Below are positions 30 to 64,000 of a stretch of 64,000 nt of DNA, piece by piece. Position 1 is the first letter of the stretch; every line of letters starts with the position of its first letter. The notes under the pieces are model-generated. The model made no database searches. It was not told where the DNA came from and was given only the letters and a program-made list of their open reading frames with translations. The position numbers and the translations under genes were made by a program. The stretch spans positions 67,399 to 131,398 of the forward strand of contig JAUCBJ010001582.1 in NCBI GenBank assembly GCA_032718475.1, given 5' to 3'. Source of the DNA: Nemertoderma westbladi (taxonomy: Eukaryota > Animalia > Xenacoelomorpha).

Positions 30-59
30 CTGAAAAAATATTACGGCGATTAATTACGC

Positions 60-34660: not shown

Positions 34661-34730
34661 AATTACTAGGATTCGAACTCGATACCTACTACACGAATTT
34701 CCAACGCTTAACCGACTGAGCTACTGAACC
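34661..34730 (-). promoter_or_regulatory. Degenerate tRNA-like sequence (Pol III A and B boxes) next to or within the element 1 5' LTR
   Basis: GGTTCAG-TAGCTCAGTCGG-TTAAGCG...GAGTTCGAATCC; there is no acceptor stem. Confidence 0.6.
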
Positions 34731-39560: not shown

Positions 39561-40450
39561 TGTAAAAGCTTTTGCGGACATAACAAGTCATTTTTCCCCG
39601 CAATGCGCAGTGTAGGTGCTTTTGCGGACATAACAAGTCATTTTTGCCGCAATGCGCATAATACTCTAAAGGACTGGAGCTCAGATGACGAAATCTGTCA
39701 GCTGATTTCCTGTAGAAGTGGAACCTCTTTGTTCTGCCTATTTAGCCAATCAGAGCGATTTTCACTTTATGTTGTCCAGGAGCCTACGGGAATCCGCGCA
39801 ATGCATTACGGTCTTTGTTTTACTTTTCTGAGCCTCAGAACACCGGCTTGGAATTCTTCTGTGCTTCTGTTTGGAAGTTTCAGACTTTGGCCAAAACATT
39901 AGATGGCTTTGATTATAAGAACGTAAATCTATTATCATACCACTCCGGTCATATTATTTCATGGAACACTGCATAAGCAACACATACTGACTGTTCACCG
40001 CATTATTTTACTTCTGTTTACGGTCTGTTATTAATTGTCGTTATATTGATGTATATTGCTGATATATTTGGAGAATACCAATAAATAATCATAAAACCCC
40101 CAATCTTCTTGATTACTGAAGGTAAGAGGAATCGGTTACCGGTAGCAATTGCGACTTACATTATAGTGGTTTTTTGTGTGAATTAAATGCTATTTCATAA
40201 TCCCTACATGTGTCAGTTGCGATCCTCCTTATATATGATCAAATTCAGTGATAGTCGGCAGATCAGTGTGAAGTAGTGTGAAGTCGTGTGACAGATAATA
40301 AAGCATCTCCTAAAGAATGCGCTATTTACGAAACTCTGTGGCCATCTCGTTGTGATTAGTATAAGTCATAACTCTGTTTTATATACTTAAAGCGCCACGT
40401 CCTAAAGGAACTGTTAATATTTCCCCGAAAGTAAATATATTGTCAGAGAT
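39561..40450 (+). mobile_element. Solo LTR of a sister BEL family, 5' portion (split by element 2)
   Basis: Begins TGTAAAAGCTT. It is a diverged reverse complement of 40696-41730; for example, GCGCCACGTCCTAAAGGAACTGTTAATATTTCCC is shared exactly. Confidence 0.88.
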
Positions 40451-41730
40451 TGTACGCGCTTTTGGAAGACCTTTAGCAGTTTAACCTGCCAAAATTTATA
40501 TGTCTTTTGGTTTATAAATCGACTCTAGAAGATGACAATATTTAATACCAATAAACACAACATTAGCAGAAGCCAGCCTAGTGCGCGTCCATTCACCCGC
40601 TGGATAATCCCGGGAGACTGGATTCTGAGGGCTTAGATTATTATTGCAGTGAAGCTTACGGTATTGTATTATTCGATTGATCGTTAATAAATAATTTCTG
40701 ACTAATATTATTCACTTTCGGGAAATATTAACAGTTCCTTTAGGACGTGGCGCTCTATCTAGATAGACAGAGATATGACTTACACTAATCACAACGGTAA
40801 GTCGGTAAGGCTTATGATTCACGTATGAGGCGCATTCTTTAGGAAATGCTTAGTTATCAGCCACAATCATGTACGCTACCGGTAACACACAATACTGCTC
40901 ACTAACTTGCCGACCGTCAATGAATTTTATCATATATAAAGAAAATAGCAACAGACCAATGTAGTGCTTATCAAATAGCATTAAATTCAATACACACCAC
41001 AATAATATAAGTCGCAATCGCTATATATAACCCGTCTTTCTAACCTGTAGTGTATCAAGAGAATTGGGAAATTTGGGTTCTTTATAAATGTTCTCCAGAT
41101 AATATTCAATCAACTGATATAAAATATGACAACAGTAAAAACATTAAGACGGTAGGTTAAGATATAATATGAACAGATATGTACAGTGATATATTAAGAA
41201 TTGTGCCGCCGATTTGATTTGATATATGAATTGTTGATTTGATAACAGTCATACGCTCTATAATCTTAAGCCTACTAATGTTTCTTTTTAGAGCCGTTGT
41301 TTCTGGCTTAGACAGCAATAACAACAAAGTATCAGTAAAAAACTGTAAGACTGAACAATCCCAGTATCATCGTCTCAAAGCTCCACATCGACAGAGAGAA
41401 TCGCTCTGATTGGCTGAAGCCAAACAAAGAACCATGCGTCCAATGGCTGTTTCCATTTAAGCAACCAGCTGTTAGATGTCGTAATCTGAATCATCACGGC
41501 TAAGCTGTGTAAAAGTATTGCCGTATTGCGGGTTTTTTGCCTTACCATGTCCGCTAAAACACGTATATAGAAGAATGACTTTTATGTCCGTTAAAAACAC
41601 CTGTAACGGTACCTTGCGGGCAAGGGGAATATATATACAGTTAGAGAACCCCTTTAGAGTATTTCAGCGCCTAGGGGGAAACTGGATTGCGAAGCAAAGG
41701 GGCCAGTTATATCCCACAGAAGCTTTTACA
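40451..41730 (-). repeat. Element 2 3' LTR (1280 bp)
   Basis: Direct repeat of 58036-59318; PPT-like CTGGGAGCGG lies immediately upstream (41731-41740). Confidence 0.97.
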
Positions 41731-41808: not shown

Positions 41809-44800
41809 TTAGTCTTTCTTGCGCGGACGGCGTTTACGCAGTTTTTTAAAGCTAGCAAGAGTCCTTTTCTCTTTGGGGCGAGCCACTTTACAAGGAGGGC
41901 TATAACTCCTGGGTGAAGGGTGCAATATGATTGCATCAGAGGGTGTAGGATTATGGTCTGTGTATCCGCCAGTCGAAGTACCGGGTTGATTGACATCGAC
42001 ATCAGGTGAGAGGGGTCTAATGGCTTTGAGAGCTCGTTTCAAGACAGCCGCTCTGACGGGTCCTTTACGCGTGGTCTGAACAAGGGCCGTGGGTGGACCA
42101 TAGGCGGTCAGAAACTTCCGAGGTTTAATGGTCCTTTCCAACTCGCGTTCGCGGGCTCGGTATTCGTAAGGCCGTCGATATACTTCCTGTAACTCAGGGT
42201 GTGAGTTAACAAACAAGTCTCCATAGTCCGGATCCTGACGGATATAATTGATTAAGTTATAGGAATGAAGGTCGCTAGGATTAACACTCCTGAGAAATTT
42301 GCGTACGAATTTGGTTGAAATACATTCTCCGACGCGCTTTATTAGCTCGTAACTCGATATGCGTGATTTCTGTTCGACCGAGGCGAAGAGATAAGGATGG
42401 AACGCATAAACTCCTTCATAAGCGCGTCCGGGATAATAGCGATGGCGCGAATCACAATGTAAATCAGCGTTCGCTTCCCAAGCTCTGATGTAACGTAGTG
42501 TGATCATTTCATCTACGCTTTCCAAGTCGTGATTAAAAGGGCAATCGAAACTGGCATGTCCCTTTAGTTGACAATGGTGACATTGAGTCATAAATTGAGG
42601 GCAAACGGCAAAGATATGCAAGTTATTGAGTCTGCAATATGCGCAATAAATTTCCATAGTTGGTTGTTCTTGGAAATAGGAACAGCGGACGTTGGTATCC
42701 ATGGGCGTATCGTGGTCTCTCGATGCGCATAACCGACAACGTTGCCTAGAAACATATTTGGCATGGCGATAATCGTACGCAGTGAGACACTGTGGACCTT
42801 GATACCATTCGATGATATAGTCGTTGTCGCTGTTCCGGGGCGTGATAGGCTGAATCTCCTCAGATTCTAGACATATTGGTTCGTCTTCTAAGTGCATAGA
42901 TGAGGTGGGCGTGTCTGTCTCCTTGGGTGGACCTATTGTCTGAATTTCTACGACAGAATAACCGGTGGGGATTCGAGGTCTTTGTAGAACAGAGGAGTGC
43001 AGGTTCGATGTACAAATCTCCTGGAAAATGGCGAATCCAGCGCTATCCAACTTCTCTGCAGCTGAGTCTCTTAGGCTGATCTTGGTTAAAGCGCGGTCTT
43101 TAAATTGGCTATCCACGTTGCGGAACGGGGTTAAAAATCGCCGGAAACATTCGAAACGAATGAATTTATTATGTTCATCTAGTTTAGCGAGTTTGGTCCC
43201 AAGTATTAATGGATGGGCGCGTATGGTACGACTGCACACATCGGCTAGCCAACCGGCAAGTGCGGTGTTTTCAAAGATCGTGTATATAGCTAAGGAGGGA
43301 CGGAGTGGAACACTCATGAAGCTATACACGGCGCCAGGTGCGGTCAATGGTCCATCAAAGTATAATCGAGAATAATGGTCTCCGTATACTTGTTGATAGT
43401 TAATGGGATTTCCGACTTTGAAATTCCATCCGTATTCCTGAAAGGCAAGATGCCCGATGGAAGTCCGTTGCACCTTGGTAATGTTGCTAGACGTATTAGC
43501 ATACATGGTGCGGAAGAAACCTCGACCTTCTGCCCAGGGGGCAATCAGCTGAGTATCAACGAAAGGGTATGGAATGTCCTCCATATTCCGAAAGTCGTTT
43601 TGGAGATCTCCATAAACAGCTGAGCCGATTTTAAGGATTCTTTCGTTGAACAACATCTCGAGTACGGGCTGGGGTAACATCGATCCATCGATGCCCATGG
43701 CCGGTTTGCGTTCGGTGTCAATGACGTAACGCTGCGCGAGTTCGAATTGTCCATGTCGGAGATTCTTTTGTAACTCGGTAAGAGTTTCAAAAGAATAATC
43801 AATCAAGTCGGAACAAGCTCGAGTAAACATGTGGGTAGAACCAGCTAATCCGCGGATGTGGATCATGCGCGTAGTTCCTAGCTCTCCGACCGGAACGCTA
43901 CCTTCATTATCGTAGGTGACAACTCCATACATCTCGATAACATTAAGAGTTTCATTCCACTCCTTGGTGGCGTTCTCTAGGGTCATCCCTACTGGATGCC
44001 ACAAGGTGGCGCATTGGTTAGCGTCAGGGAGATCACTATACTTCATATGCCGAGTGGTATACGTCTCCACAGTTCCATATCTTTGTATTTTCTCTTCTTC
44101 AAATAATACATCTAGATTCCAATGGACTAATCGAATTTTAATAAATCCATCGAGGTTATAAGGAGTTTCTATATCTTTCTCGATTCGCGAAATGTTATAT
44201 GGTTTTCTAAATGAGTTTACTTTTACTAACTGATCCAGATGTTTCTGCAATTGTTCGAGTTCGACAATGTCTAGAGGATTTATTAGTGGTAGAAACTTTA
44301 AATCATGTGCCGGGTCTTCTGGTTTTACCATATAATATTGAGTCGGATTAACGTAATAAGGGTGGTCTTTAATCCCGTAAAACGAGTTCTGCAAAGGTCT
44401 AGCGCGTATGTTGACATCGTGTACCATACGACGGACAAGATCCGCTCGATTGTCCGGAGGTTCAACGAGTATACCGTCAACACGAGCGGCCTCGATCGGC
44501 GGACGCTGTAACATAGGGGCGTCAGCGATAAGATTTTGCGATCCTGTACTGATATCAACCGGTTGAGGTTGTATCGTCGCGAAGAGCTTGTCTCATGTGG
44601 AATCATAGAGGGATGACGAATGGTTTTAGAGTAGAGATCCGTCATGAGGATTTGAGCTTCAGGCTGAGCTAAAGCGGCTTCTTCTCTCTCTTCCAGTTTC
44701 GTATGTTTCTCCTCGAGTAGAATTTCTTCCGCTTGTCTCTGTAAGCGTTCATCTAAGAATTCTTGGAGAGAATACGTGCGTCCAAGCTCGATGTCTTCCT

Positions 44801-46059
44801 CGAGGTTTCGGATTTCTCTATCGAACTGGGGTAAGGCTAACTCCTTCACCGCTTGGACTTGTTGTTGTAATTTACGTTTCTCTAAACAATCTTGTGTTCC
44901 CTTTCCGATTTTCTGTCGAATGGCATCTAAAGCGTTTCTTATAACGCTCTCCTCGACTTCCGTGGCGGGTTGTATCGGGTTTAATCCTGGACGATTGTAA
45001 GGATCAAAGGGCGATATTAACTGCCCGCGTCCCAATCCGGCTAAGTAGGATGGGCGGATGTCTAACGAACCTACTACCGGAGCACCACCGATTAGTTGTT
45101 CGGGTAACACTAAGTCTTTGAACAGGGAATATAGTTCGGGAGGATCAGTGATACTGTTAGGATCAAGAGTTTGAGGTCTCACTAGGGAATGAGGAGGCCT
45201 GACCGAGTATTCCAGAACTCTGATCATGGGTTTATTCAGTGATCGTTTAAGACGAGCGATCGTGGGCGGTACGTCGAACAGGTTTCGCTCAAAACTCCCG
45301 TAAGTGTGACGCGTAAAAACTATGTTTGGCGCAACGTCTCCGTGGATGTTTATGTCTTTCAATTTGTTGGTTGGGTCTAGGGCATTCGTCGCAATAATAC
45401 CAAAGACGCACATCCTGTAGAGGAAACGCGGGTGATCGTTCTCCAGTTTTGCAGTATTCTTCCATTTGTTCAAAACTGTCTGGGATAACAGGTAGCGGAC
45501 GATCGGCGGTAAGATACATCATAGTGAAATAGAGCCGTTTGAGTTCTACCATAGGGTCGTGATGTATACCTTGAGGATATCGAGTCTCTAAGTTCTGCTG
45601 ACTAGCGACGTTGAGATAGATTTCTCTCAAAAACTCTAAGTATTCGTTGAAGTCGATGCGTTTATCCGGTTCTTCAACGTTTTCTCTTTCCAGTCTATTA
45701 CGAATAGAATTTTCGTGATCTATTCTCGGTTTATCGTTACGACTCCGCTGGGTATGATATTTAAATAGAACCATTTCTCTTTCTGTATCTATATCGTCCG
45801 TATCATGTAAATCGATAGGATGGCCGGTCGTTAGGAAGTCCATATACGTACCATTACGATTCGTATAGCGAGTGGTGAATTTTCGATAGTCCAATTCACG
45901 CGCAAGTTGCTCTTGGGACATCGGCGGTTCGATATAACGACCATCGTACTCCGTAATGGTTGGATCGGCTTCACCGCGTATTAAGCTATCCACAAATGCT
46001 TGCAAAGGTAGAGTATATCGCTCCCTAATACCGAGATCATCTTCTATTAACTCCGTCAT
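41809..46059 (-). CDS. Element 2 accessory ORF region (~1400 codons): Cys/His domain, coiled coil, DnaQ/WRN-like exonuclease, CCHC knuckles, basic tail
   Basis: The 256-aa and 901-aa ORFs share a frame and are bridged by the overlapping 382-aa ORF. Motifs are YDNEG, LPQPVLEMLFNERILKIGSAVYGDL, FVDTQLIA, YTIFE, CHHCQLKGHASFDC and KKLRKRRPRKK. Confidence 0.78.
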
Positions 46060-47689
46060 ATCTGCTATCTGAGTTTATCAATATCAAATAAGTTTGTATT
46101 TAGGCAAGCGGGCGTCGCTGCCTACTTTCTTTGCCCCCGGACAGTGGGATTCTCAGCGCCGATGTACCGTCGTCGCGGTGTTTACGCCAACATGTAGCAA
46201 CAGCACGACGACGATAACCGGCACAAGTCACACCACTGTCCGTCCCAAAGGCTTGGATCCACTTAGGTTCTTTCTATAGGAAAGTTGGATTATTTTTACA
46301 ATTGCGACTAGCTACTGTAAACATACTTTAGTAGTAACATTCACCTACAAACGCACAAATTCAACACAACTGCAACAAACCGCACACATTCGGGCCATTT
46401 GTCCGTTAGTCAGTACCTTCCAGAATGTCACTGTATTTATTATGTATCCTTGGATACTATCGGTGCGCTATTTATTCCCTATGTTATTCAATGGGGTATG
46501 TCTTCTATTGTTCTTTTAACTCAATTCTAATTCTAGCGTGGGTGTTGCTATGGTGACATTATGGAAAGCTAGCGGTAGAATTAGGGTAATTCTCATGCAT
46601 ACAGATCTGGGATGCTATTTAATAGTAATTCTTTAATTGTCAATATCCTCTTTATGCATGATTTTATTAATTTTATCGGCTATTGACTATATGTGGGAGA
46701 TTCTCGCACTCTAGTACACTCAATAGGATGAATCTCCGCTCCCATGATCTATTAATTAATGGAATTTTGGGAATGTTATAAATTGCACAAAACGACAATT
46801 TATGAAATTCATTTAAAATATGAATTTAAATTTATTCCCATGAATTTTATTATTTGATGTTAAAATTGACACAATTTGATTCCAGAGAAGGTCTGGGGAC
46901 ATAAGATCCTTAATTCTATGAGATTGTCTTTTAAGAGTATCGGTAAGTGCTACGATATCTTAATAGACTAGAATTGTTAACGGATCTGAATTTTACAGAT
47001 TTTAATAAATATTAAATTAATATTTAAGAATTTAAGATGGGCACCGATTTATTCCAGAACTTGTCTGGGGACGTTAACCACTGATTCTAGAATTTGTCTT
47101 TCAAGTATATCGGTGGGTGCCGCGATATCTTAATCGACTAGAATTACAGATGGTCAAAGTTTAACAGATTTATTTGCGTTTTACGCTACTGTTATATGGA
47201 CATCACGCTACTATATGTATTATTTAATATAAGGTAGAAGAGCAATATCGCACGAAGCAATGTCAGTGTGAAGAGGCAAGTCGTTTCCAAGGTCTACCCA
47301 GAGCTTGGTTTAGCCGAGACACGAGGATCTGAACTTTGCATTCCTAATACTCTGCCTACCAATAATACTTGAATATAGTAGTGGCTTTATTGTACTTTAA
47401 GAAGTACGGACATTTCATCTTACTGTAGTCACGTATTTATAATATGATACGGACAGTAAGGGAAGAGAAAAATAATTATTTCTCGCCGTCGCACTAAATA
47501 TATATTATAAGTAATTACGTACGTAATAAACACTAATATATTGCACTAATCTACTAAATAATCCCTAAAATAACATTCTACTAAATAAAAATTGAATAAA
47601 AACGATTATAATAAAGTACATAATAAAGTTCGCATATAAAATGTAATAAAATGGATAAATAACATAGTCATACACCCACTCCAGACGTG

Positions 47690-49654
47690 TCACATTTGGG
47701 AGTCCCTAGATGTTTGAGGAATTAGGGAGGTGGTCGTGGGAAGAGTGTCTTGTCTTCCATAGTTTCCAGAGAGTTCTCTGTCTCTTTCCAGTAAACATAA
47801 ACGACCAACTGGGCGGTTGAGTTGTTGCGTCTCAAAGATTATGCCGGGCTTCTTGAAGTTACGCCGCATAACGATGAGTTCTACTGAACGCACTAAACCA
47901 TCCTCCGAGATATGGGTCTCGATGATACGACCTGTCTGCCACCGTTTACGTGGGAGGTCTGGATCTACAATAAGTACCATATCTCCGGCGCTGACGTTTT
48001 CTTGCTGCGCAAACCACTTAGTTCGAAGTTGTAGTGTGGGCAGGTAATGTTTCTCGAAATGGTCAGCGAAACGACGGGATAGCAACTGCATAAGTTGCCA
48101 AGTTCGACGGCAGTATTCGTCTCCGTCGGCAATCTCCGATCGTGGGAGCATGGCTACCGGTTTCTTCAGTAGGAAGTGCGCAGGTGTTAGCGCTTCCAGG
48201 GAATCGGGACTCGATGAGACTGGCATAAGCGGTCTCTCGTTGAGATAGACAGCTATTTCCTCCATTAACGTCCGCAAAAGTTCGTCGGTGAGATACGCAC
48301 GGCATGGCACTATAAAGTGAAATGCGGTCTTAACACTTCTAATTAATCTCTCCCAACTTCCTCCCCACCAAGGGGCGTCGGCGGCGTTGAAGGTCCAGCT
48401 AGACGCTGTTATCTTTAGCTGGTCATCCACCTGTCTTTGGTTCCAGTCCTTTACGTAAGCCTGTATTTCGTTGTTGGCACCAATGAAGTTCGTTCCCTTG
48501 TCCGATCTCATGGTATTACTCGTACCGAAGCGAGCGATCTGTCGTCGTAAACTTAAGACGAAACTGTTGGTAGATAGATCGTTCACCATATCGAGATGGA
48601 TGGCTCTGCAAGTCATGCACACGAAGATGACACACCATCTCTTGACTATAGTCCTCGCACGATATACTTCAATAGGGCCAAATAAATCTACACCAGTATT
48701 AGTAAAAGGTGGTTCATAGAAGCTTACTCGTTCCCTAGGTAATTCTGCCTCTCGCTGTGTTAAAGGCCTACTGAATGCTTTCCTACAGGGTATGCAGTTC
48801 CTAAGAACTTGGTTCAGAGCTCTACGGGGTTTATCAAAATAATAGCGAGTTCGAATTTCGCTAAGAACTCGTTCTCTTCCAGCATGATAAAGCTTACTGT
48901 GAACATCTACAATCATCTTGATTTGTACTTCAAGATTTCTAATGAGTATGGGGAATTTAGTGTCAAAGGATAAGGGTGCATTGGTGAGCCTTCCTCCAAC
49001 ACGTATTAACCCATCTATCATTGTGCTAGAGAATCGATCCCTTAAGCGCATCTGCGGATTTCTCAACAACAGGAAATACTTTTCGGAATCCTCATAGCAT
49101 TGCAGGAGTCTCAGTATCTGTTTATTGGTCTCTTCATGCTCCTGGTGACTAATTTTCTCCTTTAGAAAACTGTCAGATACCTTATATTTAGGTAAGTTTT
49201 TAATAACATGAACTTGTGCAGATGTCAATGGAGCGTTATCACTAGTGGTCTTCGCCCTGGAGTATTGATGATGAAAGCATCTCTTTAAATATGTGACGGC
49301 TTTACAGAGCCCATTCCAGGAACTGTAGTGATGCATCGCTCTCTGCAGCAGGGGTGAGATTCCTTGCGAGACGTCTGGTATTCCAGATTTCCAATCTCTA
49401 TCTCGAATTTCCGCAACAGACTTATTTATAGCGAGGGATTGTGGATCCAAGTCATCGTTTCCGGAAACATGTAATACAGATAGATCGATAGTCGGTTTAA
49501 ATAACTTCGATTTACTCGCCCGGGTTTTAGGTTTGACGGTCTCCGCTCCCTTGGCTTGTCTAATTTCCGCCGTAGTAAGGTGAGGAGGCCATTCGTCCTC
49601 TTCCTTGCTCAGGAAGTCGGGTCCACCCAACCAATCTGGAGTATCTATCAGTTC
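47690..49654 (-). CDS. Element 2 integrase (same frame, after a single TAA)
   Basis: HSKLYH...CIPC, GVDLFGP, SDKGTNF, WERLIRSVK, LTPAHFL. Confidence 0.95.
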   Translation of the reverse strand, partial: ELIDTPDWLGGPDFLSKEEDEWPPHLTTAEIRQAKGAETVKPKTRASKSKLFKPTIDLSVLHVSGNDDLDPQSLAINKSVAEIRDRDWKSGIPDVSQGISPLLQRAMHHYSSWNGLCKAVTYLKRCFHHQYSRAKTTSDNAPLTSAQVHVIKNLPKYKVSDSFLKEKISHQEHEETNKQILRLLQCYEDSEKYFLLLRNPQMRLRDRFSSTMIDGLIRVGGRLTNAPLSFDTKFPILIRNLEVQIKMIVDVHSKLYHAGRERVLSEIRTRYYFDKPRRALNQVLRNCIPCRKAFSRPLTQREAELPRERVSFYEPPFTNTGVDLFGPIEVYRARTIVKRWCVIFVCMTCRAIHLDMVNDLSTNSFVLSLRRQIARFGTSNTMRSDKGTNFIGANNEIQAYVKDWNQRQVDDQLKITASSWTFNAADAPWWGGSWERLIRSVKTAFHFIVPCRAYLTDELLRTLMEEIAVYLNERPLMPVSSSPDSLEALTPAHFLLKKPVAMLPRSEIADGDEYCRRTWQLMQLLSRRFADHFEKHYLPTLQLRTKWFAQQENVSAGDMVLIVDPDLPRKRWQTGRIIETHISEDGLVRSVELIVMRRNFKKPGIIFETQQLNRPVGRLCLLERDRELSGNYGRQDTLPTTTSLIPQTSRDSQM

Positions 49655-51979
49655 TTATGGAGTTGCTCCCCTGGAGGCGATATCGGCTGGATTAATCGTA
49701 CCAGGGCAATGTCTCCATTGATCTATCTTTGTGCGACTAAGAATAATAGCTACCCTGTTAGTAACAAAAACGCTGAACTGACAGACTTCATTGGTTAGAT
49801 ATTCCAACACGAGTAAAGCGTCGGTCCAATAAACCGTTTTCTCCAGTGGGTAATCGATTTGTTCCGTTACGTTCCGGCCGATGGCTGTAGCGTATAAAGC
49901 CGCTTTTAACTCCGCTCGAGGAACCTTTAACTTGTTGTTAATCAGTGCCTTAGAGGTAACCAAGGCGACTTTGATCCCATCCGGAGTTTCGACTCGCAGA
50001 TATGCTACTATACCTATTCCCATGTCGCTGGCGTCTCCAAACACATGGAGTTGATAGGAATACGTCGGAAGAACATGTCCAAAATATGCACGGGAAATTA
50101 TAAAGTTCTCGATGGCAGGTAGAGAATCTTCCCATTTCATCCATTTCTTCAACAGTTCTCCCTTAAGCGGATCATCCCATGAGTGGTTTTCAAGCCACAT
50201 CTGTTGTACTAAACTCCGAGCAATCAATATAACTGGGCTAATAAATCCCAATGGGTCGAAATAAGTGCTCAGGATACTTAAACAAATCCGTTTGGTCCTG
50301 ACTGGATTATCTCGCTGTTTTAACTGAAAAAACAGGATGTCTCTTTCAGTGTCCCACTTCAAGCCTAGCGTCTTGGTTTCAGGAAGATCGTCCTTTATTA
50401 AGTCTAGGTCTTTCGCTCCGCGATCCTCTACCGGTATGGCTTCCAGAAACTCACGGGAGTTACTAGTGAATTTCGTCAGTCGAAATCCACCTCTTTTCAA
50501 ACACTCTACCGTTCCTTTCGCGACAGCTATGGCTTCTTCTACTGATGGAAGGGACCTTAAATTGTCGTCCATGTATATATTGCGTTTTATGTTGTCTATC
50601 ACTTCTTTGGAGAAGGAGTCTCGGTTGTCATTCGCAGTGGTTCGCACCACGGAGCAGGCGTTGGAAGGGCTAGATATGATCCCAAAAGCCTGGATGGTCA
50701 TCCAGTACTCCACCGGTTTCTGGTTGAGGTCTCCTTCAGGCCACCACAGAAATCTCAGGCTGTCTCTATCTCTCTCCAGCGCCTTGACTTGTAAGAACAT
50801 TCCTTCGATATCGGAAGCGAACGCGATGGAATATTGTCTTAATCTTAAAAGTATTCCCAATAAAGATTGGAGTAAATTGGGTCCTGGTAACAACTCGGAA
50901 TTAAGGGATTGGCCCATATATAGAGCAGAGCCATCGAATACGACTCGTACTTCATGGGGCTTACCGGGTTTGGGAACGTAATGATGTGTTAAGTAATACG
51001 TTCTCTCAGTCACTGGTGTTCCTTCCGGTACTCGCTCCGCGTATCCCTTTGTTATAAATTTCTTCAGCTGAGTTTGGTACATTTCTTTCGCTGAAGCATT
51101 ATCTGTAAGGCGTCGATGTAATTGAGCGATTCTTTTCTCGGCCAAGGGTCTGTTATTTATAAATCTAGGTTCTTGTTTTCGAAATGGCAGGCAGATTTCA
51201 TACCTACCTTGGTCTTTTAAAAAACGTGTAGTTGTTTCCTGGATTTGCTTGGCTCTTTCTTCTTCTATCGATAGAGCCTTATCATACGAATTGGGCTCTA
51301 CAAGTTCCTGAGTAAAGAATCGTACGGCTAGTTCGTCCCGAGTTCTAGCGTTGCAGCGCTCTATCTCATCGTTGAGTTCATCATTGTAAGTGATGGGTTC
51401 CGATGGGTGAATCAGTTGACATAGGTTCACCTGATCTTTCCAAGTTTGGTTTTCTGTAAGTAAGTCTATGGTGTTCTCCTCATCGAAGAGTTGATAAGTG
51501 TAATCGTTATCTGAGGAGTATGGTGTTCCCTCAGTTAGTTCGTCCACCTCACTGCTCTCCTCGCTCCAATCGCTCACATGATCTACTCGTTCTTGTGGCA
51601 TTCTCTCTTCGAGAGTCCTGCGGGAAGGGCCAGTAAAGTACCAACCTACTCTAGTTCTTACCGCATAGGTTTGCAGTGGCTGCGGTTGAGCAGGTCGTTT
51701 CTCTAATGTTTCAAGCGCCTCATGCGCGTTTTGGCCGATAAGGATTTGCACTCCAGGATAATCTGTCTGGAACCGAGGTATCTTAAGATGTTGGATGCTC
51801 TCATCTTCGTCCCAATTATAAAGGTCTGCTTGAGTAGTAGCGAAGTTCTTTATAGCCACCATTTTTACCGACCTTATACCTTGTGTTCCTAACTTATCCT
51901 GGGGAGTGGACAACACACCTACGTAGTAATCTGCCGTTAGGGTAGATTTCCAAACCTGCATAATTCCTGACATATTCAA
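49655..51979 (-). CDS. Element 2 protease C-terminus, RT and RNase H
   Basis: YYLTHH, VRVVFDGS, DIEGMFLQV, IYMDD, FDPLG, HVFGDAS, VPRAEL, WRHCPGTINPAD. Confidence 0.95.
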   Translation of the reverse strand: MNMSGIMQVWKSTLTADYYVGVLSTPQDKLGTQGIRSVKMVAIKNFATTQADLYNWDEDESIQHLKIPRFQTDYPGVQILIGQNAHEALETLEKRPAQPQPLQTYAVRTRVGWYFTGPSRRTLEERMPQERVDHVSDWSEESSEVDELTEGTPYSSDNDYTYQLFDEENTIDLLTENQTWKDQVNLCQLIHPSEPITYNDELNDEIERCNARTRDELAVRFFTQELVEPNSYDKALSIEEERAKQIQETTTRFLKDQGRYEICLPFRKQEPRFINNRPLAEKRIAQLHRRLTDNASAKEMYQTQLKKFITKGYAERVPEGTPVTERTYYLTHHYVPKPGKPHEVRVVFDGSALYMGQSLNSELLPGPNLLQSLLGILLRLRQYSIAFASDIEGMFLQVKALERDRDSLRFLWWPEGDLNQKPVEYWMTIQAFGIISSPSNACSVVRTTANDNRDSFSKEVIDNIKRNIYMDDNLRSLPSVEEAIAVAKGTVECLKRGGFRLTKFTSNSREFLEAIPVEDRGAKDLDLIKDDLPETKTLGLKWDTERDILFFQLKQRDNPVRTKRICLSILSTYFDPLGFISPVILIARSLVQQMWLENHSWDDPLKGELLKKWMKWEDSLPAIENFIISRAYFGHVLPTYSYQLHVFGDASDMGIGIVAYLRVETPDGIKVALVTSKALINNKLKVPRAELKAALYATAIGRNVTEQIDYPLEKTVYWTDALLVLEYLTNEVCQFSVFVTNRVAIILSRTKIDQWRHCPGTINPADIASRGATP

Positions 51980-52027
51980 TTTTGTCCGGAATTTGGGTTG
52001 TCCAGCAAAGATGTCTTCGGCTAATTC

Positions 52028-55000
52028 TTAATCTATGAATGTTCCTGTGCTGCTGGAATCAAGGAGTGCGTTCACTATGTAACTGTGGTGAGTACCATGA
52101 ATTCTTACTTGCACTACAGGAAATTCTCTGATTCCTACGTTGGAAGTTGGCGTTTTCCAAGATGGTTGTTTGGCAAAAGTAGTTAGGGGAAACTCATTGT
52201 TGGTGTCCTTTTCATAAGTAAGTGCTCGATACACGGAGGTATTGATTAGATAACAGGATTCGTTGGCGTCGGAGAATTCGTCAGTATAGAATCCTTCCAT
52301 CTCAGACTCCTGATCAGTGTCGTTTACATCACTGAATTGGACATGTAGTTCGGACTCACTTACCTGACTCTGCTTGTCTCGTTCGAACTCACTATGTAAC
52401 AAGATGTGATGTTTCGCACCACACTTTTCACACTTTATGTCGGAGTAACAGGTTCGCCGTTGGTGTCCTGGTCTGAGGCAATTATAGCATAACCGCTTGT
52501 CCCACACAACTGTACGTCTGTCTACAAGGGATTTCTTTAGAAATTCCGCACACGCACTCAAACGGTGGGTCCCGTCGCACAGCGCACAGTTAGGTTTTAT
52601 GTTACTTACTTTACCTTGGGTAATCTGATGCACTCTCGTTCTTTCTTCGGGCTTTCTTCCGCGCATTCTGCTAGGAGACTGAGGAGGGGTCTTAGCAACC
52701 TGTTCTCTCCTATTGTTGGTTTGAGCCTTGTATTTACTTACGTCCTTGGAGGTTTTGTCAACATAGTAAGATCGTTCGGTGTCTTTCCCGCTGTCTTCTT
52801 CTTGAGAAGCTTGGCTTTCGCCGTCGTCAGTGTAACACACCGGTGTTACTCTTCTCCTAGAAGCGGGTTTCTCACTTACCTTATTTTCCGATGTTTTCTC
52901 TCTGGACTGCTTGATGAGTTGTAGTTTTACCTCACCATCTAAGAAGGACATGAGATCAGCCATGGTAGGACTTCGTCATTGTTGTTCATTCATGTACAAC
53001 ACTTTCTTGTCCCAGCGTGTACATACTCCACCCTTTGGTAAAGTAGAGACTACTGCTCCAATAACCATGGAACTCTGATATTCATGAGACTTACCTAACC
53101 AGTCCAGTTGTCTACAGATTTCCTGAATTTCATCCGAAAACTCTATAATCCCGCTACTAAGGAAGTGTCGAGGGGCTACTAATTTCGCATACAAATACTT
53201 AGCTATGTTGTCCTTGTTACCATACCTGATGTTTAATGTATCCCAAACTTGTCTTAATCCTTCTGGATGTCCAATAAACTTTAACGCCATTAACTTGGGA
53301 GGTCCTTCCAAGCACTTGATGAGGAACCTAAGTTTCTCTCCGTTAGATAGCACAGAGTTCTGTATGCTGTCTTTGTAATATTCGTTGAAAGGTAACCATT
53401 TCATTTCGTCTCCATTGAATTTGACGATCTCTCCCACTTTGACCGCTTGGCGGGCTTCTGTTCTAGCCATCTGCCGCGTAAAGCTTTCTTGGGCCATCGT
53501 GTTATTTAATATAGAATTATCGGCATATAAATTTCTTGGATCATTATCAGGTCTATAGGGAATATCATTAATAACAGGTCTATAATCACCCTTAATAGGG
53601 TTTGTTATAGGAGTTTCAACTTCACTAGCAGTATAGATGCGTGTAGGCTCCACACCTTGCGCATGTAATACTTCAGACCTAACAGGTTGACACAATGTTA
53701 CAGGGGGTATTGGTATGCCCTTTTGTATATTGACTAATTTATCGCGTTCTAGTGCGATACTTTGCTGCACTTCTTGTAATTCTGCCCTACTTTCCCTTAC
53801 TGTTCCCTTAAGCTGGTGGACAGTCTCCTGCATCTGTCTGAGCAGGAGGTTCATCCCCCGCCGTCCCTCCTCTACCCACTCAACCGCCGAAGCGGGAGTC
53901 GCCAACATTGTAGCGGGTTGATGCGGGACGACGGGAGACAAATCTTTGCTTCCTCTCCCAATGCTCAGGACAGGGGTATTTGCATGGACTGTTCCACCGG
54001 GTACAGGCAGTGTGGTACTATGTAAAGGGAATTTAGAGTTAAGCTCTGGAAGTGCAGGGGTCTCTAGCACAGAAGTGACTTTGGGAACGACAGGCCTAAT
54101 TATTTCAGGTTCATCGACTATAGTAGGGAGTCTTTTGACCTGGATAAATTGTTCTATGGGTTCTGCACTACCTAAGTCTGTGCTAGTTAGTTGTCTTTTA
54201 ACAGCTGGGGGCAAATCAGGCAATTTGTGACGGTAAGATGTTTTTCTACGCCTGCTTAGACGAGATCTATTTCCTCCGCCTTCAGGATCGGTGGTTTCGC
54301 TTTCCTCCGATGAAGTATAGCCCTAGCGTTTGGGAGTAGATTTTCTCATCATTTGCATGTGACTAGCAGTTAACTGTTTATTTATGTTGTCTTGCGTCTC
54401 TTGCAGCCTCTCCAACTCCAGTTGGGTAGTCTGCTCAGACGCTCTCCGTTCTGCTTCCGCTACTGCCTTTTCCGCCCTTGCTTCTGTTTCTGCCATGGCC
54501 GCCTTTGCTTCTGCCGCCGCCGCCTTTCTTTGTATTTCTGCTTCTGCCATGGCTGCCTTTCTTTGTATTTCTGCTTCTGCCCTTGCCGCTGCCTCCTTTC
54601 TTTCTGCTTCGGCTTCTGCGATTGCCGCTGCCCTTTGGTCCTCTATCCTCCTTTTCTTTACTCGTTCTTCTTGAACTCTAGTGAGGCGGAGTTTTTCATC
54701 AAATTCAGCTTGATTAGCCGCCAACATTTCAGCGTCGATTGAGTCTAACACCCGCTGGGTTCCTTCCCTATTAGGGGAAAGTCCAGACAGTCGTCTCCTC
54801 AACTCTTCGTCTCCTAGGAATCGCTGATAGTCGGATAGGTAAATGTCGATGGCGTCTCTCGTTCGTGGTCTTTCTGCAGTCTCTTCGCTTTCCACTTTAG
54901 AAAGGGTGGCATCGGTTGGTTTTTCATAAGTTAGTCTCTCAGACAGCTGGGATTTCCACTGGTCCGTTTCTTGCACTTTGCGACCTACCCTCTGGAACCA

Positions 55001-55826
55001 AGTCTTAACAGAAACCTGCAGCGACGTGTCCTGTCTTCTTTTGGAAGTTTCCTCAAAGGCTGACAGAATTAGTCTAATGCGTAGGGTTCTTTCGCGCACT
55101 TGATATAGCAGCTCTTCCTGCAGAACAACTGTTTCGACAACCCCAAGGACCTCAACCTTGGGGTTGTCGAAACAGTTGTTCTTCTAATCGCTCTAATGAG
55201 CCGAAGAACCCTTGCACATATCCTGCTGCCGACCTCTTCCAAACAGCTGGATCCATTGTATCTTTAGTCACTCCCATCCGATGTATATCTTCCCAAGTAG
55301 CTTCGGACAGATCTAACGGGAGTCCAGGTCCGGGAAAGTTCCATTGTGACTCGACAATAGACATCAATTCTTCCCTGGCGTATCCCGCATAATTATCTTG
55401 GGTCGCTTTCTTATTCCTCGCCCAATCTGCTTGATGTTCCACCGCAATCAGTATAGTGGTTAGCACTGCGGCAGGAAGGGTGAGAAGAGGGTCCGAGTAG
55501 GCTGTAGCCGCCATCTGCAATCCGCGTTCGGGGGTCAGCTCGACAGTATCCGAACTACTGGAGCTATCGGATCGCTGGGAACTAGGTTCTTGACCAAGAT
55601 GTTGCTGCGATAGGACAGCTGCCTCTTGGTTCCGTTTGACCTGGGCCCGAGTACCTATGATGGACCTATGGTGGATTAGCCTAGGGTCTGATACTACTGG
55701 AGGGATGACCTTTCTTGCAGTAGGAGGTGAACTGAACTCCTTTCTTAATCGCTCTACACTCCTATCTGTGTCACAGATGGTTGTATCGATTAGACTGTCT
55801 GACAGGTTTTGCTGAGTGTCAGACAT
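52028..55826 (-). pseudogene. Element 2 gag and protease
   Basis: Ala/Glu coiled coil; VKFNGDEMKWLPF...LSNGEKLRFLIKCLEG (DUF1759-like); CALC..H...C, CYNCLRPGHQRRTC and CEKCGAKHHILLH; protease ALLDSSS. One frameshift (~55150) and in-frame stops at 54323, 52976 and 52028. Confidence 0.9.
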
Positions 55827-57132
55827 GTTTAGCTATACAGTTGAATGCTTACTGCTATAGTTACAGTTAAAGCAAGTCCAGTAATTCAGTATGACCGTTG
55901 GCCTAGTACCGGTAATTTATTGCAGTATATTAGAATACCGGTATACACTTATAGTATATATAAGTATTGTAAACTAGGTTTGTCACAGAGTACCGGTATA
56001 TAAATTTAGCACAAATATATATAAATATATAATAGGCTTATCGTGAATACCGGTATACAGCTTACACTTATAGTATATATAAGTATAATTATGAACTAGA
56101 ATTAATTACAGAGTACCGGTATGATTTCAGCTCAAATTTATAGGAATAAATATAATAAGCCTATGGTAAATACCGGTATGTCAATTATTTTAGAATAATC
56201 GAACCTCTGAATATTTAGGTTACTTGGTTACTCTAACTTACTTTGTTACCGTTATTTAAGCAGTAGTCCAACTGATTTTGAGACCTAGTTGTTGTATGGC
56301 AGGCCTACTACTTATAAATCGTTTGAGTTGATTTATAATATATATATATACCCGTTTAAAAGGGTTATGTCAATATTTGAAATAAATGTTATTATTTCTG
56401 GGGGGTCACTACACAGAAGCTGTGCGCTCTCAGTGAAGTGCTATTTATGGGACACTAAAACTGATAATTCTAATTTACCTAAGTTACTTAATACTACAAA
56501 TTACTTACGATACGGGTGAGATTAAATCTCTAGTTAAACACAACAAAAATATTACGTACGAATTTTTAGGGTAATTTTACAGGAAGTCTACAAACCAGCC
56601 TAACAAAGGGTTAGAATTCTGGACAGGGTACTACGGTATTTGAAAATAATAAGTAGTAGTAAATATACTGTACTGTCCAGATAGGAAAATACCACCGCCT
56701 GACGACCTATAACCGTATCGCTATAGGTACTACGTTATGTATCACGGATTGTTCCTACCCAGAAGTTAATAGAGCTAACGAATGTGCCTATCAACCACTT
56801 TACAACACAAATATACTGCCTACACACTAATTACTTCGGAAAGCACTGTACACTAAACCCTAAATTAGGTACAAGTACTGGTATAACAAATAATCAGCAG
56901 TTAAATATACTTGAACAGTTAAAAGAACCACGGCATCTGCTGGAGTGACCGAAGCACAAAGTCACCAGTCTTGTCCTACGCCAAGCAGCCCGTGTAGTAC
57001 CGAGGTTAATTTAACTATAACGGTATGTGTAACAAACACAATTACTGTAGGAATAAACTTGGGGACATGAATGTTGCGAATAATCGCATAAACTCTGAAT
57101 AATAAATATTACGCTACCCGTACAGAATACTC

Positions 57133-57980
57133 AAACAAAATACAAACCAAACGCTGGCAGACTACCACCAAGCCTAAATAAACTACTGTATGTGCAGATT
57201 CCAAAACGGTTAGTTAGTATGCGTTCTAACACGGTAGTACGACTTATTCTTTAAGAGGGGATTGACCTTACAGTTATGACTGCCCCAACTTACTAACTGG
57301 CACTTTATCAGACAAACTCTACACAAGCAGCAATCTCTTTAGACCTAATAATAGCTAGACAACAATCCAGCCTACAAAATATCTGAGTAATAACTATTAC
57401 GGTACCTGAACAGACCACACAAACAAACACAAGCCAAAACGCTGGCAGAATACTGTCAAGCCTAAATAAACTACAGTATGTGCAGATTCCAAAATTGTTA
57501 GTTAGTATGCGTTCTAACACGGTAGTACGACTTATTCTTTAAGAGGGGGTTGACCTTACACTCAAGTTGCCCCAACTTACTAACTGGCACTCTATCGGAC
57601 AAACTCCACACACGCCGTAATCTCTCCAAACCCAACAACAATCCGACAACAGTCTGGCCTACAGTTATCTGAACAATCTGAGCAGACTTACACGTCTTCA
57701 GCTCAATATTTACTTACTAGGAAATAAAACCGACAGAAATAAGTAAAATCTCAGTAAAAACCAGGGTGGCCGTTCCCTGATTAAATACTAAGACCTACCG
57801 GTATACTATAATCAAATCGAATAATACTAATGTACTTATACTGGAAGTACCGGTTAGGACAGTTGGGCCTACGGACCTACAGAAGTGCCGGTTCTGGCAG
57901 TTGGACCTACGGACCTACAGCAGTACCGGTTCTGGCAGTTGGGCCTACTGACCTACAGAAGTACCGGTTCAGGTTTACCG
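57133..57980. repeat. Element 2 5' leader repeats (~290-bp-period duplication and 38-bp tandem units)
   Basis: 57133-57330 resembles 57420-57620; GTACCGGTTCTGGCAGTTGGACCTACGGACCTACAGAA occurs ~3.5 times at 57845-57970. Confidence 0.8.
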
Positions 57981-58035
57981 GTCGATCGGTACTTTCAACT
58001 TTATTGCTTACTGCAATAAAGTCAATGACTGTTAT

Positions 58036-59318
58036 TGTACGCGCTTTTGGAAGACCTTTAGCAGTTTAACCTGCCAAAATTTATATGTCTTTTGGTTTAT
58101 AAATCGACTCTAGAAGATGACAATATTTAATACCAATAAACACAACATTAGCAGAAGCCAGCCTAGTGCGCGTCCATTCACCCGCTGGATAATCCCAGGA
58201 GACTGGATTCTGAGGGCTTAGATTATTATTGCAGTGAAGCTTACGGTATTGTATTATTCGATTGATCGTTAATAAATAATTTCTGACTAATATTATTCAC
58301 TTTCGGGAAATATTAACAGTTCCTTTAGGACGTGGCGCTCTATCTAGATAGACAGAGATATGACTTACACTAATCACAATGGTAAGTCGGTAAGGCTTAT
58401 GATTCACGTATGAGGCGCATTCTTTAGGAAATGCTTAGTTATCAGCCACAATCATGTACGCTACCGGTAACACACAATACTGCAGCTCACTAACTTGCCG
58501 ACCGTCAATGAATTTTATCATATATAAAGAAAATAGCAACAGACCAATGTAGTGCTTATCAAATAGCATTAAATTCAATACACACCACAATAATATAAGT
58601 CGCAATCGCTATATATAACCCGTCTTTCTAACCTGTAGTGTATCAAGAGAATTGGGAAATTTGGGTTCTTTATAAATGTTCTCCAGATAATATTCAATCA
58701 ACTGATATAAAATATGACAACAGTAAAAACATTAAGACGGTAGGTTAAGATATAATATGAACAGATATGTACAGTGATATATTAAGAATTGTGCCGCCGA
58801 TTTGATTTGATATATGAATTGTTGATTTGATAACAGTCATACGCTCTATAATCTTAAGCCTACTAATGTTTCTTTTTAGAGCCGTTGTTTCTGGCTTAGA
58901 CAGCAATAACAACAAAGTATCAGTAAAAAACTGTAAGACTGAACAATCCCAGTATCATCGTCTCAAAGCTCCACATCGACAGAGAGAATCGCTCTGATTG
59001 GCTGAAGCCAAACAAAGAACCATGCGTCCAATGGCTGTTTCCATTTAAGCAACCAGCTGTTAGATGTCGTAATCTGAATCATCACGGCTAAGCTGTGTAA
59101 AAGTATTGCCGTATTGCGGGTTTTTTGCCTTACCATGTCCACTAAAACACGTATATAGAAGAATGACTTTTATGTCCGTTAAAAACACCTGTAACGGTAC
59201 CTTGCGGGCAAGGGGAATATATATACAGTTAGAGAACCCCTTTAGAGTATTTCAGCGCCTAGGGGGACACTGGATTGCGAAGCAAAGGGGCCAGTTATAT
59301 CCCACAGAAGCTTTTACA
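58036..59318 (-). repeat. Element 2 5' LTR (1283 bp)
   Basis: By eye it differs from the 3' LTR by about 4 substitutions and one 3-bp indel. Confidence 0.97.
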
Positions 59319-59323
59319 GAGAT

Positions 59324-59549
59324 TATATAGTAACGATCAATCGAATAATACAGTAGGTCTACACCGCAATCACTATCAAAGCATCCGAATCCATTCTCCC
59401 TTAACTGTGGTGAATGGTCGCGCATAGACTGGTTTCGGCTAATGTAACTTCAGTGCAGTAAATAATCGATATAGGCTAAGGTCGATTTATAAATAAGAAG
59501 ACAACTAAAATTGGCAGGTTAAACTGCTAAAGGTCTAAAAGCGCGAACA
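59324..59549 (+). mobile_element. Solo LTR of the sister family, 3' portion
   Basis: Diverged reverse complement of 40451-40695; ends GCGCGAACA and is followed by the TSD TACAT. Confidence 0.88.
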
Positions 59550-60027
59550 TACATGGATCCTTGTTTCAGAAGTACATGGATCCTTGTTTCAGAAGTACAT
59601 GGATCCTTGTTTCAGAAGTACAAGGATCCTTGTTTAAGAAGTACATGGATCATCCTTGTTTTAGAAGTACATGGATCTTTTTTTCAGAAGTACATGGATC
59701 CTTGTTTTAGAAGTACATGGATTCTTGTTTCAGAAGTACATAGATCCTTGTTTCAGAAGTACATGGATTCTTGTTTCAGAAGTACATGGATCCATGTTTC
59801 AGAAGTACATGGATCCTTGTTTCAGAAGTACATGGATCCTTGTTTCAGAAGTACATGGATCCTTGTTTCAGAAGTACATGGATCCTTGTTTTAGAAGTAC
59901 ATGGATCTTTTTTTCAGAAGTACATGGATCCTTGTTTCAGAAGTACATGCATCTTTGTTTCAGAGGTACATGGATCCTTGTTTAAGAAGTACATGGATCC
60001 TTGTTTCAGAAGTACATGGATCCTTGT
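59550..60027. repeat. 23-bp minisatellite, right part
   Basis: Same unit; TACAT is duplicated at 39556-39560 and 59550-59554. Confidence 0.95.
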
Positions 60028-60472
60028 TGGGATCATATTGCCCTTTGTAAGAGGATCTGTGCAGGCGCGCACATGAGGGGCCTGTTTTTAAGCAGCTTTC
60101 TGTGATTTTATGTGGTTTTGCCGATCAGGTCTGATCAAGGTCAGGTTTGAGGCTACCAGGTTACGATGTAGTAGTTCACGAGAATGATATATACAGTTTC
60201 CTAATCCTATTGCTACTATTAAGGCTCACCCCACATTAGAGGCTGAAACTTTGATGCTTTAAATTCAGTATTAATGTTATTCCCCTAATAATCCAGTACT
60301 TAAAAGTATAACTTTTGTTTTCTACTGTGGGTGTTAGATTTCATTTCTAGGTTTTGTTTACCAACGGATATCCGATGTTTGCGCACCTATGAAAAATTAC
60401 TTTGTATCTGAAAAGTGTCTTAAAAACATTTACTAGTTGGTGAATTTATAATGATTACCGGTACCTTTACAG

Positions 60473-62160: not shown

Positions 62161-63041
62161 ACCTACCTACTGGCTCCAGAAGTCGAGGAAATCCTGCCAA
62201 GTACCTAACTGATCTAGACTTTGCTGATGACTTAGGAGTACTCTCAGAATCATTAGAGGGAGCCCAGCGGCTCCTCAGCTCATTAGAACATGCTGCTTCT
62301 AGTGTTGGTCTTTTTATTAACTCCAGAAAGACCAAAATTCTGACAGTTAACTTTGAAAATCCTCAGCAAGTCTCTGATCGGATGAGCATAAGCTCAAAGG
62401 ATGGTATGCTTGAGCATGTGGACGACTTCTGTTACCTGGGATCATGGATCCGGAAGTCAGGTGAGGACCTTCGAATACGTAAGGGAAAGGCATGGGCAGC
62501 CTTGAATAGGCTTTCCAGGATTTGGAAGTCACCTAGAATTAATCGGAAACTTAAGGTCCGATTATTTAGAGCAGCAGTAGTTCCAGTACTCCTCTACGGG
62601 AGTCCATGCTGGGCTCTAACTGCTGAGGACACCAAATCTCTGGATGGCACATTCACAAGAATGCTACGCCGGGTACATTGTGTCAAGTACAATGCACACA
62701 TCTCCAACCAGACACTATATAACATTGGAGGTGTCTCATTGGTTCCCCCAAGCTTGACACTAGAACAAAATCGCCTCCGCTTTGCAGGACATTGCTTTCG
62801 CCGTGAGGACCAGCAAGTGCATAATCTTGTACTTTGGCAGCCTCATGGAGTGAATAAGCATGGTGGACAGCCCATGACTTTCTTGAGACGCATCTTAAAG
62901 GACACTGGCCTTAAAGATGCGGATGATCTAGCAAATTTCATGGGTGATAGGGAGTTGTGGCGGTGTAATTTTGTTGACAAGCCGGCACAGCATTCTTAAA
63001 AATGCAGCTGCAATGCAGCATGCCGATCCTAGTTGTAGTAG
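62161..63041 (+). mobile_element. 5'-truncated non-LTR retrotransposon (RTE-like), RT C-terminal part
   Basis: LDFADD, FCYLGS, LSRIWKS, KVRLFRAAVVPVLLYGS, RLRFAGH; (TAG)n-like tail; 9-bp TSD TAGCTTGTT at 62152-62160 and 63042-63050. Confidence 0.88.
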
Positions 63042-63058
63042 TAGCTTGTTTATAGGAA

Positions 63059-63161
63059 TTTATAGCCCGTTATATATCGTTATAGCCCGTTATAGATCGT
63101 TATAGCCCGTTATAGATCGTTATAGCCCGTTATAGATCGTTATAGCCCGTTATAGATCGTT
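63059..63161. repeat. 10/20-bp tandem repeat (TTATAGCCCGTTATAGATCG), continuing a degenerate array at 62105-62160 that was split by the LINE
   Basis: Directly visible. Confidence 0.8.
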
Positions 63162-64000
63162 CTACATTTTAGTACGTACCTGGGTCTTGACTCTTATCTT
63201 GCGCATTACTGTACGTGATGCAGACCGTCCGAATTGGCCAAAAAAGTGACATTGTCAGAATGGGCACGTGAACTTGAACCGCCGTTACCTTGGGGCTAAT
63301 TTTATGCGTCACTTTATGTGTGAATGCGTATTTGTGGTCAAATTGGGTTATTCTGTAGACGTTTTCGGCGAAATTTCTGGTCAGCAGGCAGGAAACTGTA
63401 TAACAGAAGTTGCCCTAACAGACTCAGTCTGTTAGTTTGTTAGTCTGTTCTTTTTAACTGATTCTTGGGAGTGGTCTACTACACCATAGGACCTGCGTGT
63501 TTAGAAAGGGCGCAGAGAAGTCTGCAGTTGTCCAGTCCACCGCTAGGGGGCAAAATGTCAGAAAGTGAAAATCTTCTTCCATTTCGTTACTTACAGTATA
63601 ATGCTTTTTAACTGATTCTTGGGAGAGTCGACTACACCATAGGTTGCGTGTTTGGGAAGGACGCTGTCAAGTCTGTCACAAGAAGGCGAAATAAGTGAAA
63701 ATGAAAGAAATTTCTGATATGAAAGCCTTGTCCCATTTTGCTGTTTACAACCATTTTGGATTTGCTTTGGCGGGTAACTACTACACAACATAAAGCCCTA
63801 TTTTGTAGTCACCTGCCAAGTAAACCTGCTTTAGTTTGTGAGAACACTGTGTTTGTGATATTTTCTTTAAAGTTACAGTACAGTAATACATTAATTAATT
63901 TATGTTTGAATTATTGATTAACAAGTTTGTGTACTAGAAATCTTTCTAGTTTTATTATATTTATGAATTATCATCATTCGTTAGCATTATTCGTCGCCTA

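Follow-up and report, generated by a model that had tools for sequence, protein, structure and literature searches.

Examination of a 64,000-nucleotide stretch of DNA (the window), which has the character of repeat-rich animal-type DNA, indicated that an 18.9-kb BEL/Pao element on its minus strand (59318-40451) probably primes reverse transcription with RNA derived from its own long terminal repeat (LTR), when all forms of such self-priming are taken together. The narrower proposal, that a contiguous 11-nucleotide piece of LTR RNA rather than a tRNA serves as the primer of this BEL/Pao element, appears moderately likely. The observations themselves are the anatomy of the element, the missing TGG, an 11-nucleotide complement of the LTR that begins at the first base after it, and the presence of the same signature in most of the relatives that could be scored. 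Self-priming is the best reading of these observations because 12 of 16 relatives proved to be self-complementary, as compared with 12 of 272 mismatched pairings that scored as high.

The element and the repeat into which it is inserted are made up of the following parts:

58036-59318, minus strand: 5' LTR of 1283 nucleotides, bounded by TG...CA
40451-41730, minus strand: 3' LTR of 1280 nucleotides, with a purine-rich tract just before it
59319-59323 (upstream copy, minus strand) and 40446-40450 (second copy): target-site duplication of 5 bp
47690-55832, minus strand: gag-pol, with DUF1759, zinc knuckle, RT, Peptidase_A17, integrase and DUF5641 (Pfam)
41809-46074, minus strand: accessory ORFs in three frames, of which 41809-44592 includes a domain that is likely a DEDDy-type 3'-5' exonuclease and, after it, Cys/His knuckle-like motifs
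39561-40450, plus strand: first part of a sister solo LTR, approximately 72% identical to the element LTR (local match) and interrupted by the element
59319-59549, plus strand: last part of the sister solo LTR, which has its own 5-bp target duplication within a 23-nucleotide tandem array

The polyprotein domains follow the order gag-RT-RH-IN and comprise the BEL/Pao domain set (Pfam), and PF05380 is present in all matches listed, at 37-44% identity. The element is young, its two LTRs being 99.5% identical (four substitutions and one 3-nucleotide indel apart), and it was inserted into a sister-family solo LTR that lies in the opposite orientation. The main gag-pol frame contains four internal stops, and there is a frame change near 55150-55180; for these reasons this copy is probably non-autonomous. 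A self-complementary stretch of 61 nucleotides (55122-55182, 88.5%) lies at that change, where the first ORF gives way to the main gag-pol frame, and may represent either a frameshift signal or chance. The leader of the element is 2.2 kb long, and within it (57200-57960, minus strand) a unit of approximately 45 nucleotides occurs three times just after the hairpin described below, together with a duplication of approximately 300 nucleotides.

Around the site of priming, and within the 5' LTR, the features that bear on the argument are these:

58025-58035, minus strand: primer-binding site (PBS), 11 nucleotides, without TGG, exactly complementary to LTR positions 479-489
58830-58840, minus strand: candidate self-primer in the 5' LTR, 805 nucleotides from the LTR end, with a putative function
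41242-41252, minus strand: copy of the 11-mer in the 3' LTR
57995-58025, minus strand: predicted hairpin directly 3' of the PBS, perfect over 10 bp, 13 bp with G-U pairs
58039-58173, minus strand: predicted U5 stem, in which 58173-58168 pairs with 58044-58039, ending 3 nucleotides short of the PBS and enclosing a hairpin at 58077-58058
58633-58834, minus strand: possible LTR intron of 202 nucleotides, a candidate for splicing, with a weak donor inside the 11-mer and a pyrimidine-rich acceptor
58669-58674, minus strand: possible polyadenylation signal, TATAAA, at LTR position 645, where the sister LTR has AATAAA in the alignment
58987-59003, minus strand: 17-nucleotide word that contains CCAAT and recurs unchanged in the sister LTR, approximately 160 nucleotides upstream of the 11-mer

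The PBS reads ATAACAGTCAT (58035-58025) and begins at the first base past the 5' LTR, that is, at offset 0. A preliminary description of this DNA had claimed that no TGG directly follows the 5' LTR, and this was confirmed: the first TGG is found 272 nucleotides past it, as against the 0-5 nucleotides within which a tRNA-primed site would place it. Its further claim, that the site is the exact complement of an 11-mer in the LTR, also held, since the exact reverse complement occurs in the whole window only at 58840-58830 and 41252-41242; the match is exactly 11 nucleotides long and extends on neither side. The perfect 10-bp hairpin that it had placed at 57998-58022 was found as well, and reaches 13 bp when G-U pairs are included. 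According to the accessible text of one study, self-primers are predicted from LTR complementarity of at least 10 bp that starts 0-5 bp after the LTR (PMC6317226); in the present element the corresponding values are 11 bp and offset 0. ARAGORN found no tRNA genes in the 64-kb window, and Rfam returned 0 matches in 32000-60000.

Several estimates were made of how often such a match would arise by chance. Dinucleotide shuffles of the LTR contained the complement of the 11-mer at offset 0 in 23 of 20,000 cases, and gave a match at any of the offsets 0-5 in 62 of 20,000; among all minus-strand 11-mers of the window, 126 of 61,468 have a complement no more than 1283 nucleotides upstream. A chance match at the PBS is unlikely at a p of approximately 0.001-0.003 per single test, yet this value is not decisive across a large scan.

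The strongest argument for self-priming comes from distant relatives. A search with an RT alignment yielded 80 BEL loci in metagenome contigs (36-42% identity), and the 16 loci with both LTR 3' ends inside the contig formed the scorable set, with three of those ends shifted by one base; 59 of the 80 loci were left out of PBS scoring, either because the LTR end could not be fixed or because the locus was not chosen. In 12 of the 16 scorable relatives there is no TGG site, and the post-LTR site is instead complementary to the LTR of the same element, in eight of them across a GT-AG junction and in four contiguously. The junction matches measure 10-15 nucleotides (L002, 11; L005, 13; L010 and L011, one family, 15; L025, 11; L027, 12; L048, 10; L060, 12), are equalled by 0-14 of 200 shuffles, and have donors of the GTAAG- or GTACG-type, and the contiguous matches (L037, 12; L043, 10; L044, 11; L046, 10) are equalled by 0-3 of 200. 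One of the remaining loci, L056, has a tRNA-type site with TGG at offset 2, and the other three (L017, L041 and L076) showed neither TGG nor self-complementarity. For two of these negatives (L076:2237-2260 and L041:2170-2200) the LTR ends look misplaced, and the L076 LTR contains a junction matching the L002 and L005 sites. In a swap control, in which sites were set against the LTRs of other loci, 12 of 272 non-cognate pairings reached 10 nucleotides (six of these between related families) and two of 272 reached a contiguous 11 nucleotides. The large LTR of the present element was matched over 10 nucleotides by one of 16 foreign post-LTR sequences, by chance. The distance from primer to LTR end is 72-210 nucleotides in the 12 relatives versus 805 in the 18.9-kb element. 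A search of metagenome contigs for the exact LTR-end pattern gave no match, and no relative was found among viral contigs.

In a quick tree, both BEL elements of the window were placed together on long branches, outside a 69-row group that holds the 12 self-complementary loci; the open set around the window elements also includes the tRNA-type L056. As this placement is unsure, the rows drawn beside the window elements were examined for self-complementarity. Three of these neighbours proved self-complementary across a junction, L029 over 15 nucleotides and L030 and L066 over 12 each (0 of 200 shuffles in every case), with LTR ends that are themselves inferred, and comparison of L030 with L066 revealed matched differences on both sides of the pairing. 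For the LTR of L058 and the site of L019, nothing was found under a strict acceptor filter, and a complement of 14 nucleotides was found under a relaxed filter used without a shuffle control. The post-LTR sequence of the latter locus (L019:56-75, with L058:6800-6960) begins with TGG and yet fits an LTR splice junction over 14 nucleotides from offset 2, which indicates that TGG alone can cause a site to be mislabelled as tRNA-primed. The self-priming reading put forward in the preliminary description thus gained from 12 of 16 scorable relatives and from four tree-neighbour families; the flanking duplexes of the Tf1 type, described below, were recovered only in part.

The second BEL element of the window (20307-32175, minus strand) is broken and shares 42% RT identity with the 18.9-kb element. 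It proved unusable as a test of self-priming, its LTRs not being delimitable: after its purine tract only 125 nucleotides (19368-19492) recur upstream (34736-34860). The single 11-nucleotide self-match that it contains is at chance level.

The alternative that survives best, although it is unlikely, is that the match arose by chance and that the primer at the non-TGG site is some small RNA, such as a fragment of a host tRNA. The chance level of 0.1-0.7% per element has to be set against a very large scan, the element sits on a long branch with an atypical primer distance of 805 nucleotides, its sister LTR differs at the aligned site, and half-tRNA primers are known in copia lineages according to the accessible text of PMC6317226. 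Against this stand the exact coincidence of the start of the match with the LTR end and the finding that scorable relatives, on either side of the root as drawn, are as a rule self-complementary, which raises the prior for self-priming far above the chance rate. Two reservations attached to the original proposal, an R-U5 of approximately 800 nucleotides and the divergence of the sister solo LTR at this site, are both real: the distance is 805 nucleotides, and other letters stand at the aligned sister positions 39925-39935, the sister offering the PBS of the element only an 8-nucleotide match that is shifted downstream to 39988. Because a solo LTR carries no PBS, the sister gives no verdict on covariation. 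Matched complementarity between PBS and LTR, of the kind that had been suggested as a check, is seen among distant relatives (12 of 16, and L030 versus L066), outside the element's own family. If the TATAAA/AATAAA word is a polyadenylation signal, R-U5 would exceed 640 nucleotides wherever transcription starts, which would soften the objection from distance.

Distinctly unlikely, in our estimation, is the proposal that a spliced LTR transcript primes in trans: removal of the 202-nucleotide intron (58834-58633) would join 6 and 4 nucleotides into a 10-nucleotide PBS complement at offset 1. This junction match is equalled by 9 of 200 shuffles and is accompanied by a pyrimidine-rich acceptor, the candidate intron includes the LTR stretch that is least shared among copies, and eight of the 12 self-complementary relatives use such a junction. 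The donor, GTTATC, fails a strict donor filter, unlike the donors of the relatives; the contiguous match is longer; no such joint is present among the 15 of 24 contig joints listed for the host; and the acceptor is crossed unspliced by one contig of a run guessed to be RNA. The contiguous and junction matches are not independent, since their first 6 nucleotides are common to both. The least probable alternative holds that the 11-mer of the 3' LTR (41252-41242) pairs with the PBS region and so joins the RNA ends for strand transfer or packaging, another RNA acting as primer, and although the 11-mer is indeed also present in the 3' LTR and local pairing is predicted to sequester its 5' copy if the start lies upstream, such pairing would block the site that a primer needs, no other primer site is evident, and the complement in relatives often exists only across a splice junction, which is a misfit with end pairing of an unspliced genome. 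Long-range pairing of RNA ends is a feature of Ty1.

Priming by the contiguous 11-mer would proceed in four steps: (i) transcription would begin at or just upstream of 58840; (ii) the 5' end of the RNA would anneal to the PBS, flanked by the U5 stem on one side and the downstream hairpin on the other, either by folding back or by way of a second LTR transcript; (iii) a cut after nucleotide 11, made by the RNase H of the element if the process is Tf1-like, would free a 3'-OH that abuts the LTR end; and (iv) reverse transcriptase would then copy approximately 800 nucleotides of R-U5 as strong-stop DNA. The pol of the window copy is broken, so the proteins would need to be supplied by another copy.

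Folding predictions outline a site of this kind. The 116-nucleotide region around the hairpin behind the PBS has a z of -3.3 (1 of 200 shuffles), and the 6-bp U5 stem with its inner hairpin is predicted in the sister LTR too, with one A-U/U-A swap; that swap is matched by 247 of 500 shuffles, and a comparison of only two sequences has no statistical power. A helix between primer and PBS was predicted when the RNA was made to start at 58840 or 58845 (from 58840, p 0.84-0.99 for 10 of the 11 pairs), and was absent from predictions with starts at 58860, 58942 or 59000; with starts further upstream, the 5' copy of the 11-mer was predicted to be paired locally. As evidence this helix was discarded and has no value, because it was equally predicted for four of four unrelated chance 11-nucleotide matches (two pairs, both strands of each) and with 56 of 60 shuffled spacers. 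No strong duplex was predicted between the PBS flanks and the 60 nucleotides after the primer (ranks 14-20 among 24 windows), and the three-duplex fold of Tf1 is at most partly present in these models.

A 9-nucleotide word at -31 from the 11-mer is common to the element and sister LTRs, and a TATA-like word with one mismatch is found at -40. Another weak TATA-like word lies 10 nucleotides upstream of the 11-mer and is aligned in the sister LTR; by the usual spacing between such a word and the start of transcription, it could put the start beyond the 5' end of the primer. A perfect TATA box 31 nucleotides before the primer start is present in L066 alone, one of 16 sequences examined. A scan for bacterial promoters was set aside as irrelevant in animal DNA.

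Sequencing runs of the host supplied further sequence of the element family. Seven such runs are listed, none recorded as RNA; five contain the stretch or part of it, and the contigs of four were compared at 57600-59548, with the limitation that assembled contigs cannot reveal a transcription start. The element family is very abundant and varied in these contigs. In run X1 the summed depth is 150,295 at 58835-58899 versus 6,880 at 58770-58834, with 49.6 at position 58781, and at the depth of 58853 the total for the bin 58770-58834 corresponds to only 3.2 (X1) or 4.1 (X3) positions. Near the 3' end of the 11-mer, no more than a few bases away, contig depth thus drops approximately 20-fold, which argues that a widely shared LTR block ends near that point. 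Among the 15 of 24 joints listed, four re-enter at 58823-58829 and retain the 11-mer region, and two re-enter at 58855 and substitute it. Retention of the 11-mer at the border of a variable segment fits both the contig depth and the joints. No variant of the PBS or of the 11-mer is present among the 40 of 239 variants listed, a finding without evidential weight. At many positions (for example 57664, 57711 and 58626) nearly all of the contig depth differs from the letter of the window, which indicates that the window copy represents a minor subfamily within this highly abundant family.

The preliminary description had also raised the idea that an accessory exonuclease trims the primer. An accessory ORF is common to the second BEL element, at 31% identity, and the ORF at 41809-44592 has no Pfam match; a profile built from both accessory ORFs returned two matches, one of them a credible relative (P0121, E 4.8e-7), which itself has a sub-threshold match to PF01612. 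DEDDy 3'-5' exonucleases combine an RNase H-like fold with a DxE...D...YxxxD layout of motifs, and DxE, KxG, D and YxxxE are conserved in the three accessory sequences. The closest look-alikes of the domain in the ESM Atlas belong to PF01612 clusters (0.91; 140-144 of 256 features shared). From these motifs and language-model look-alikes, the accessory ORF is likely to encode a DEDDy-like exonuclease. Searches of PDB sequences returned zinc-knuckle matches only, apart from EXD2 at E 1.7, and a word-index search with the ORF yielded 0 of 2431 candidates. A structure model of the domain was unusable (pLDDT 33). Four relatives that bear the self-primer signature (L011, L027, L046 and L060) have 160-354 nucleotides between polyprotein and 3' LTR, which is too little for such a gene; the accessory ORF is therefore unnecessary for the signature, and the suggested trimming is left unsupported. 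For the segment 43135-44031 (minus strand), the three best Atlas look-alikes are exonuclease clusters in which Nucleocytoviricota is the commonest taxon, which in itself is no sign of transfer.

BEL/Pao elements are in general pictured as tRNA-primed. Such tRNA-primed elements (here L056) have the same domain set, TG...CA LTRs and 5-bp target duplication as the present element, which by contrast lacks a TGG at the primer site and has a very long LTR, a 2.2-kb leader and accessory ORFs. The reference case for self-priming is Tf1: the accessible part of the source reports that bases 1-11 anneal to the PBS and that RNase H cleavage falls between bases 11 and 12 (PMC7175516). Three sources, in their accessible texts, assign self-priming to Tf1/sushi, Tj1, Tcn1 and the TAR lineage of plants (PMC4600332, PMC6317226, PMC7175516). 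The present element resembles Tf1/Tf2, Tj1 and Tf1/sushi in its self-primer signature, and folding also predicts a U5 stem next to its PBS; judged by sequence, it is nevertheless not a Tf1/sushi member, since those are Ty3/gypsy chromoviruses, and it has BEL/Pao domains, no chromodomain match, and a primer 805 nucleotides from the LTR end. In the three-duplex 'pretzel' of Tf1, both PBS flanks pair with LTR sequence (bioRxiv 2022.12.06.519325, accessible part), whereas here the 3' flank of the PBS is predicted to fold upon itself. As with the plant TAR copia elements (Houba, Osr-1) and the gypsy element Tcn1, the prediction comes from LTR-PBS complementarity by the same rule (PMC6317226, accessible text), although in an element of a different superfamily and host kingdom. 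The rotifer LTR elements Juno and Vesta likewise have an exonuclease-like accessory ORF after pol, a DEDDy-exonuclease ORF3 for which the accessible text of the source draws no link to priming (PMC5408684); they belong to other LTR lineages, while the element described here is BEL/Pao and its exonuclease assignment comes from motifs and language-model look-alikes.

A literature search that covered titles and the beginnings of abstracts, with most subscription journals outside its scope, found no description of self-priming in BEL/Pao, and a prior mention may exist; the accessible part of PMC3601003 states that BEL/Pao LTRs were not modelled. If correct, the self-priming reading would extend this mode of initiation to a third major LTR superfamily, beyond Tf1/sushi gypsy and the predicted Tcn1 and TAR copia cases, and would explain BEL elements that have been annotated without a PBS. 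The splice-junction form in relatives would link priming with host splicing and, as the LTRs keep the intron, would imply action in trans. We advance only tentatively, at somewhat less than an even chance, the wider proposal that a large part of BEL/Pao has abandoned tRNA in favour of priming by its own LTR RNA, frequently through a tiny first exon spliced to a second, the giant exonuclease-bearing lineage using a contiguous 11-nucleotide form across an R-U5 loop of 800 nucleotides, in which the primer forms the 5' terminus of the transcript.

The remainder of the window provided several minor observations. Immediately after the 125-nucleotide repeat of the second BEL element is a tRNA-like stretch (34660-34735, minus strand) with A-box- and B-box-like words, possibly a SINE, for which neither ARAGORN nor Rfam gave a match. 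A segment bounded by TG and CA (34878-35614, minus strand) resembles an unrelated solo LTR, for which a target duplication was not seen. A foldback-like element (10804-13882) has inverted arms of 244 and 144 nucleotides (93-94%) around a GAA-rich repeat region. Minisatellite arrays, with units of 10, 11, 23, 26, 31, 49 and 51 nucleotides, are found at 1-6054, 14307-17100, 39239-39654, 59465-60088 and 63030-63184.
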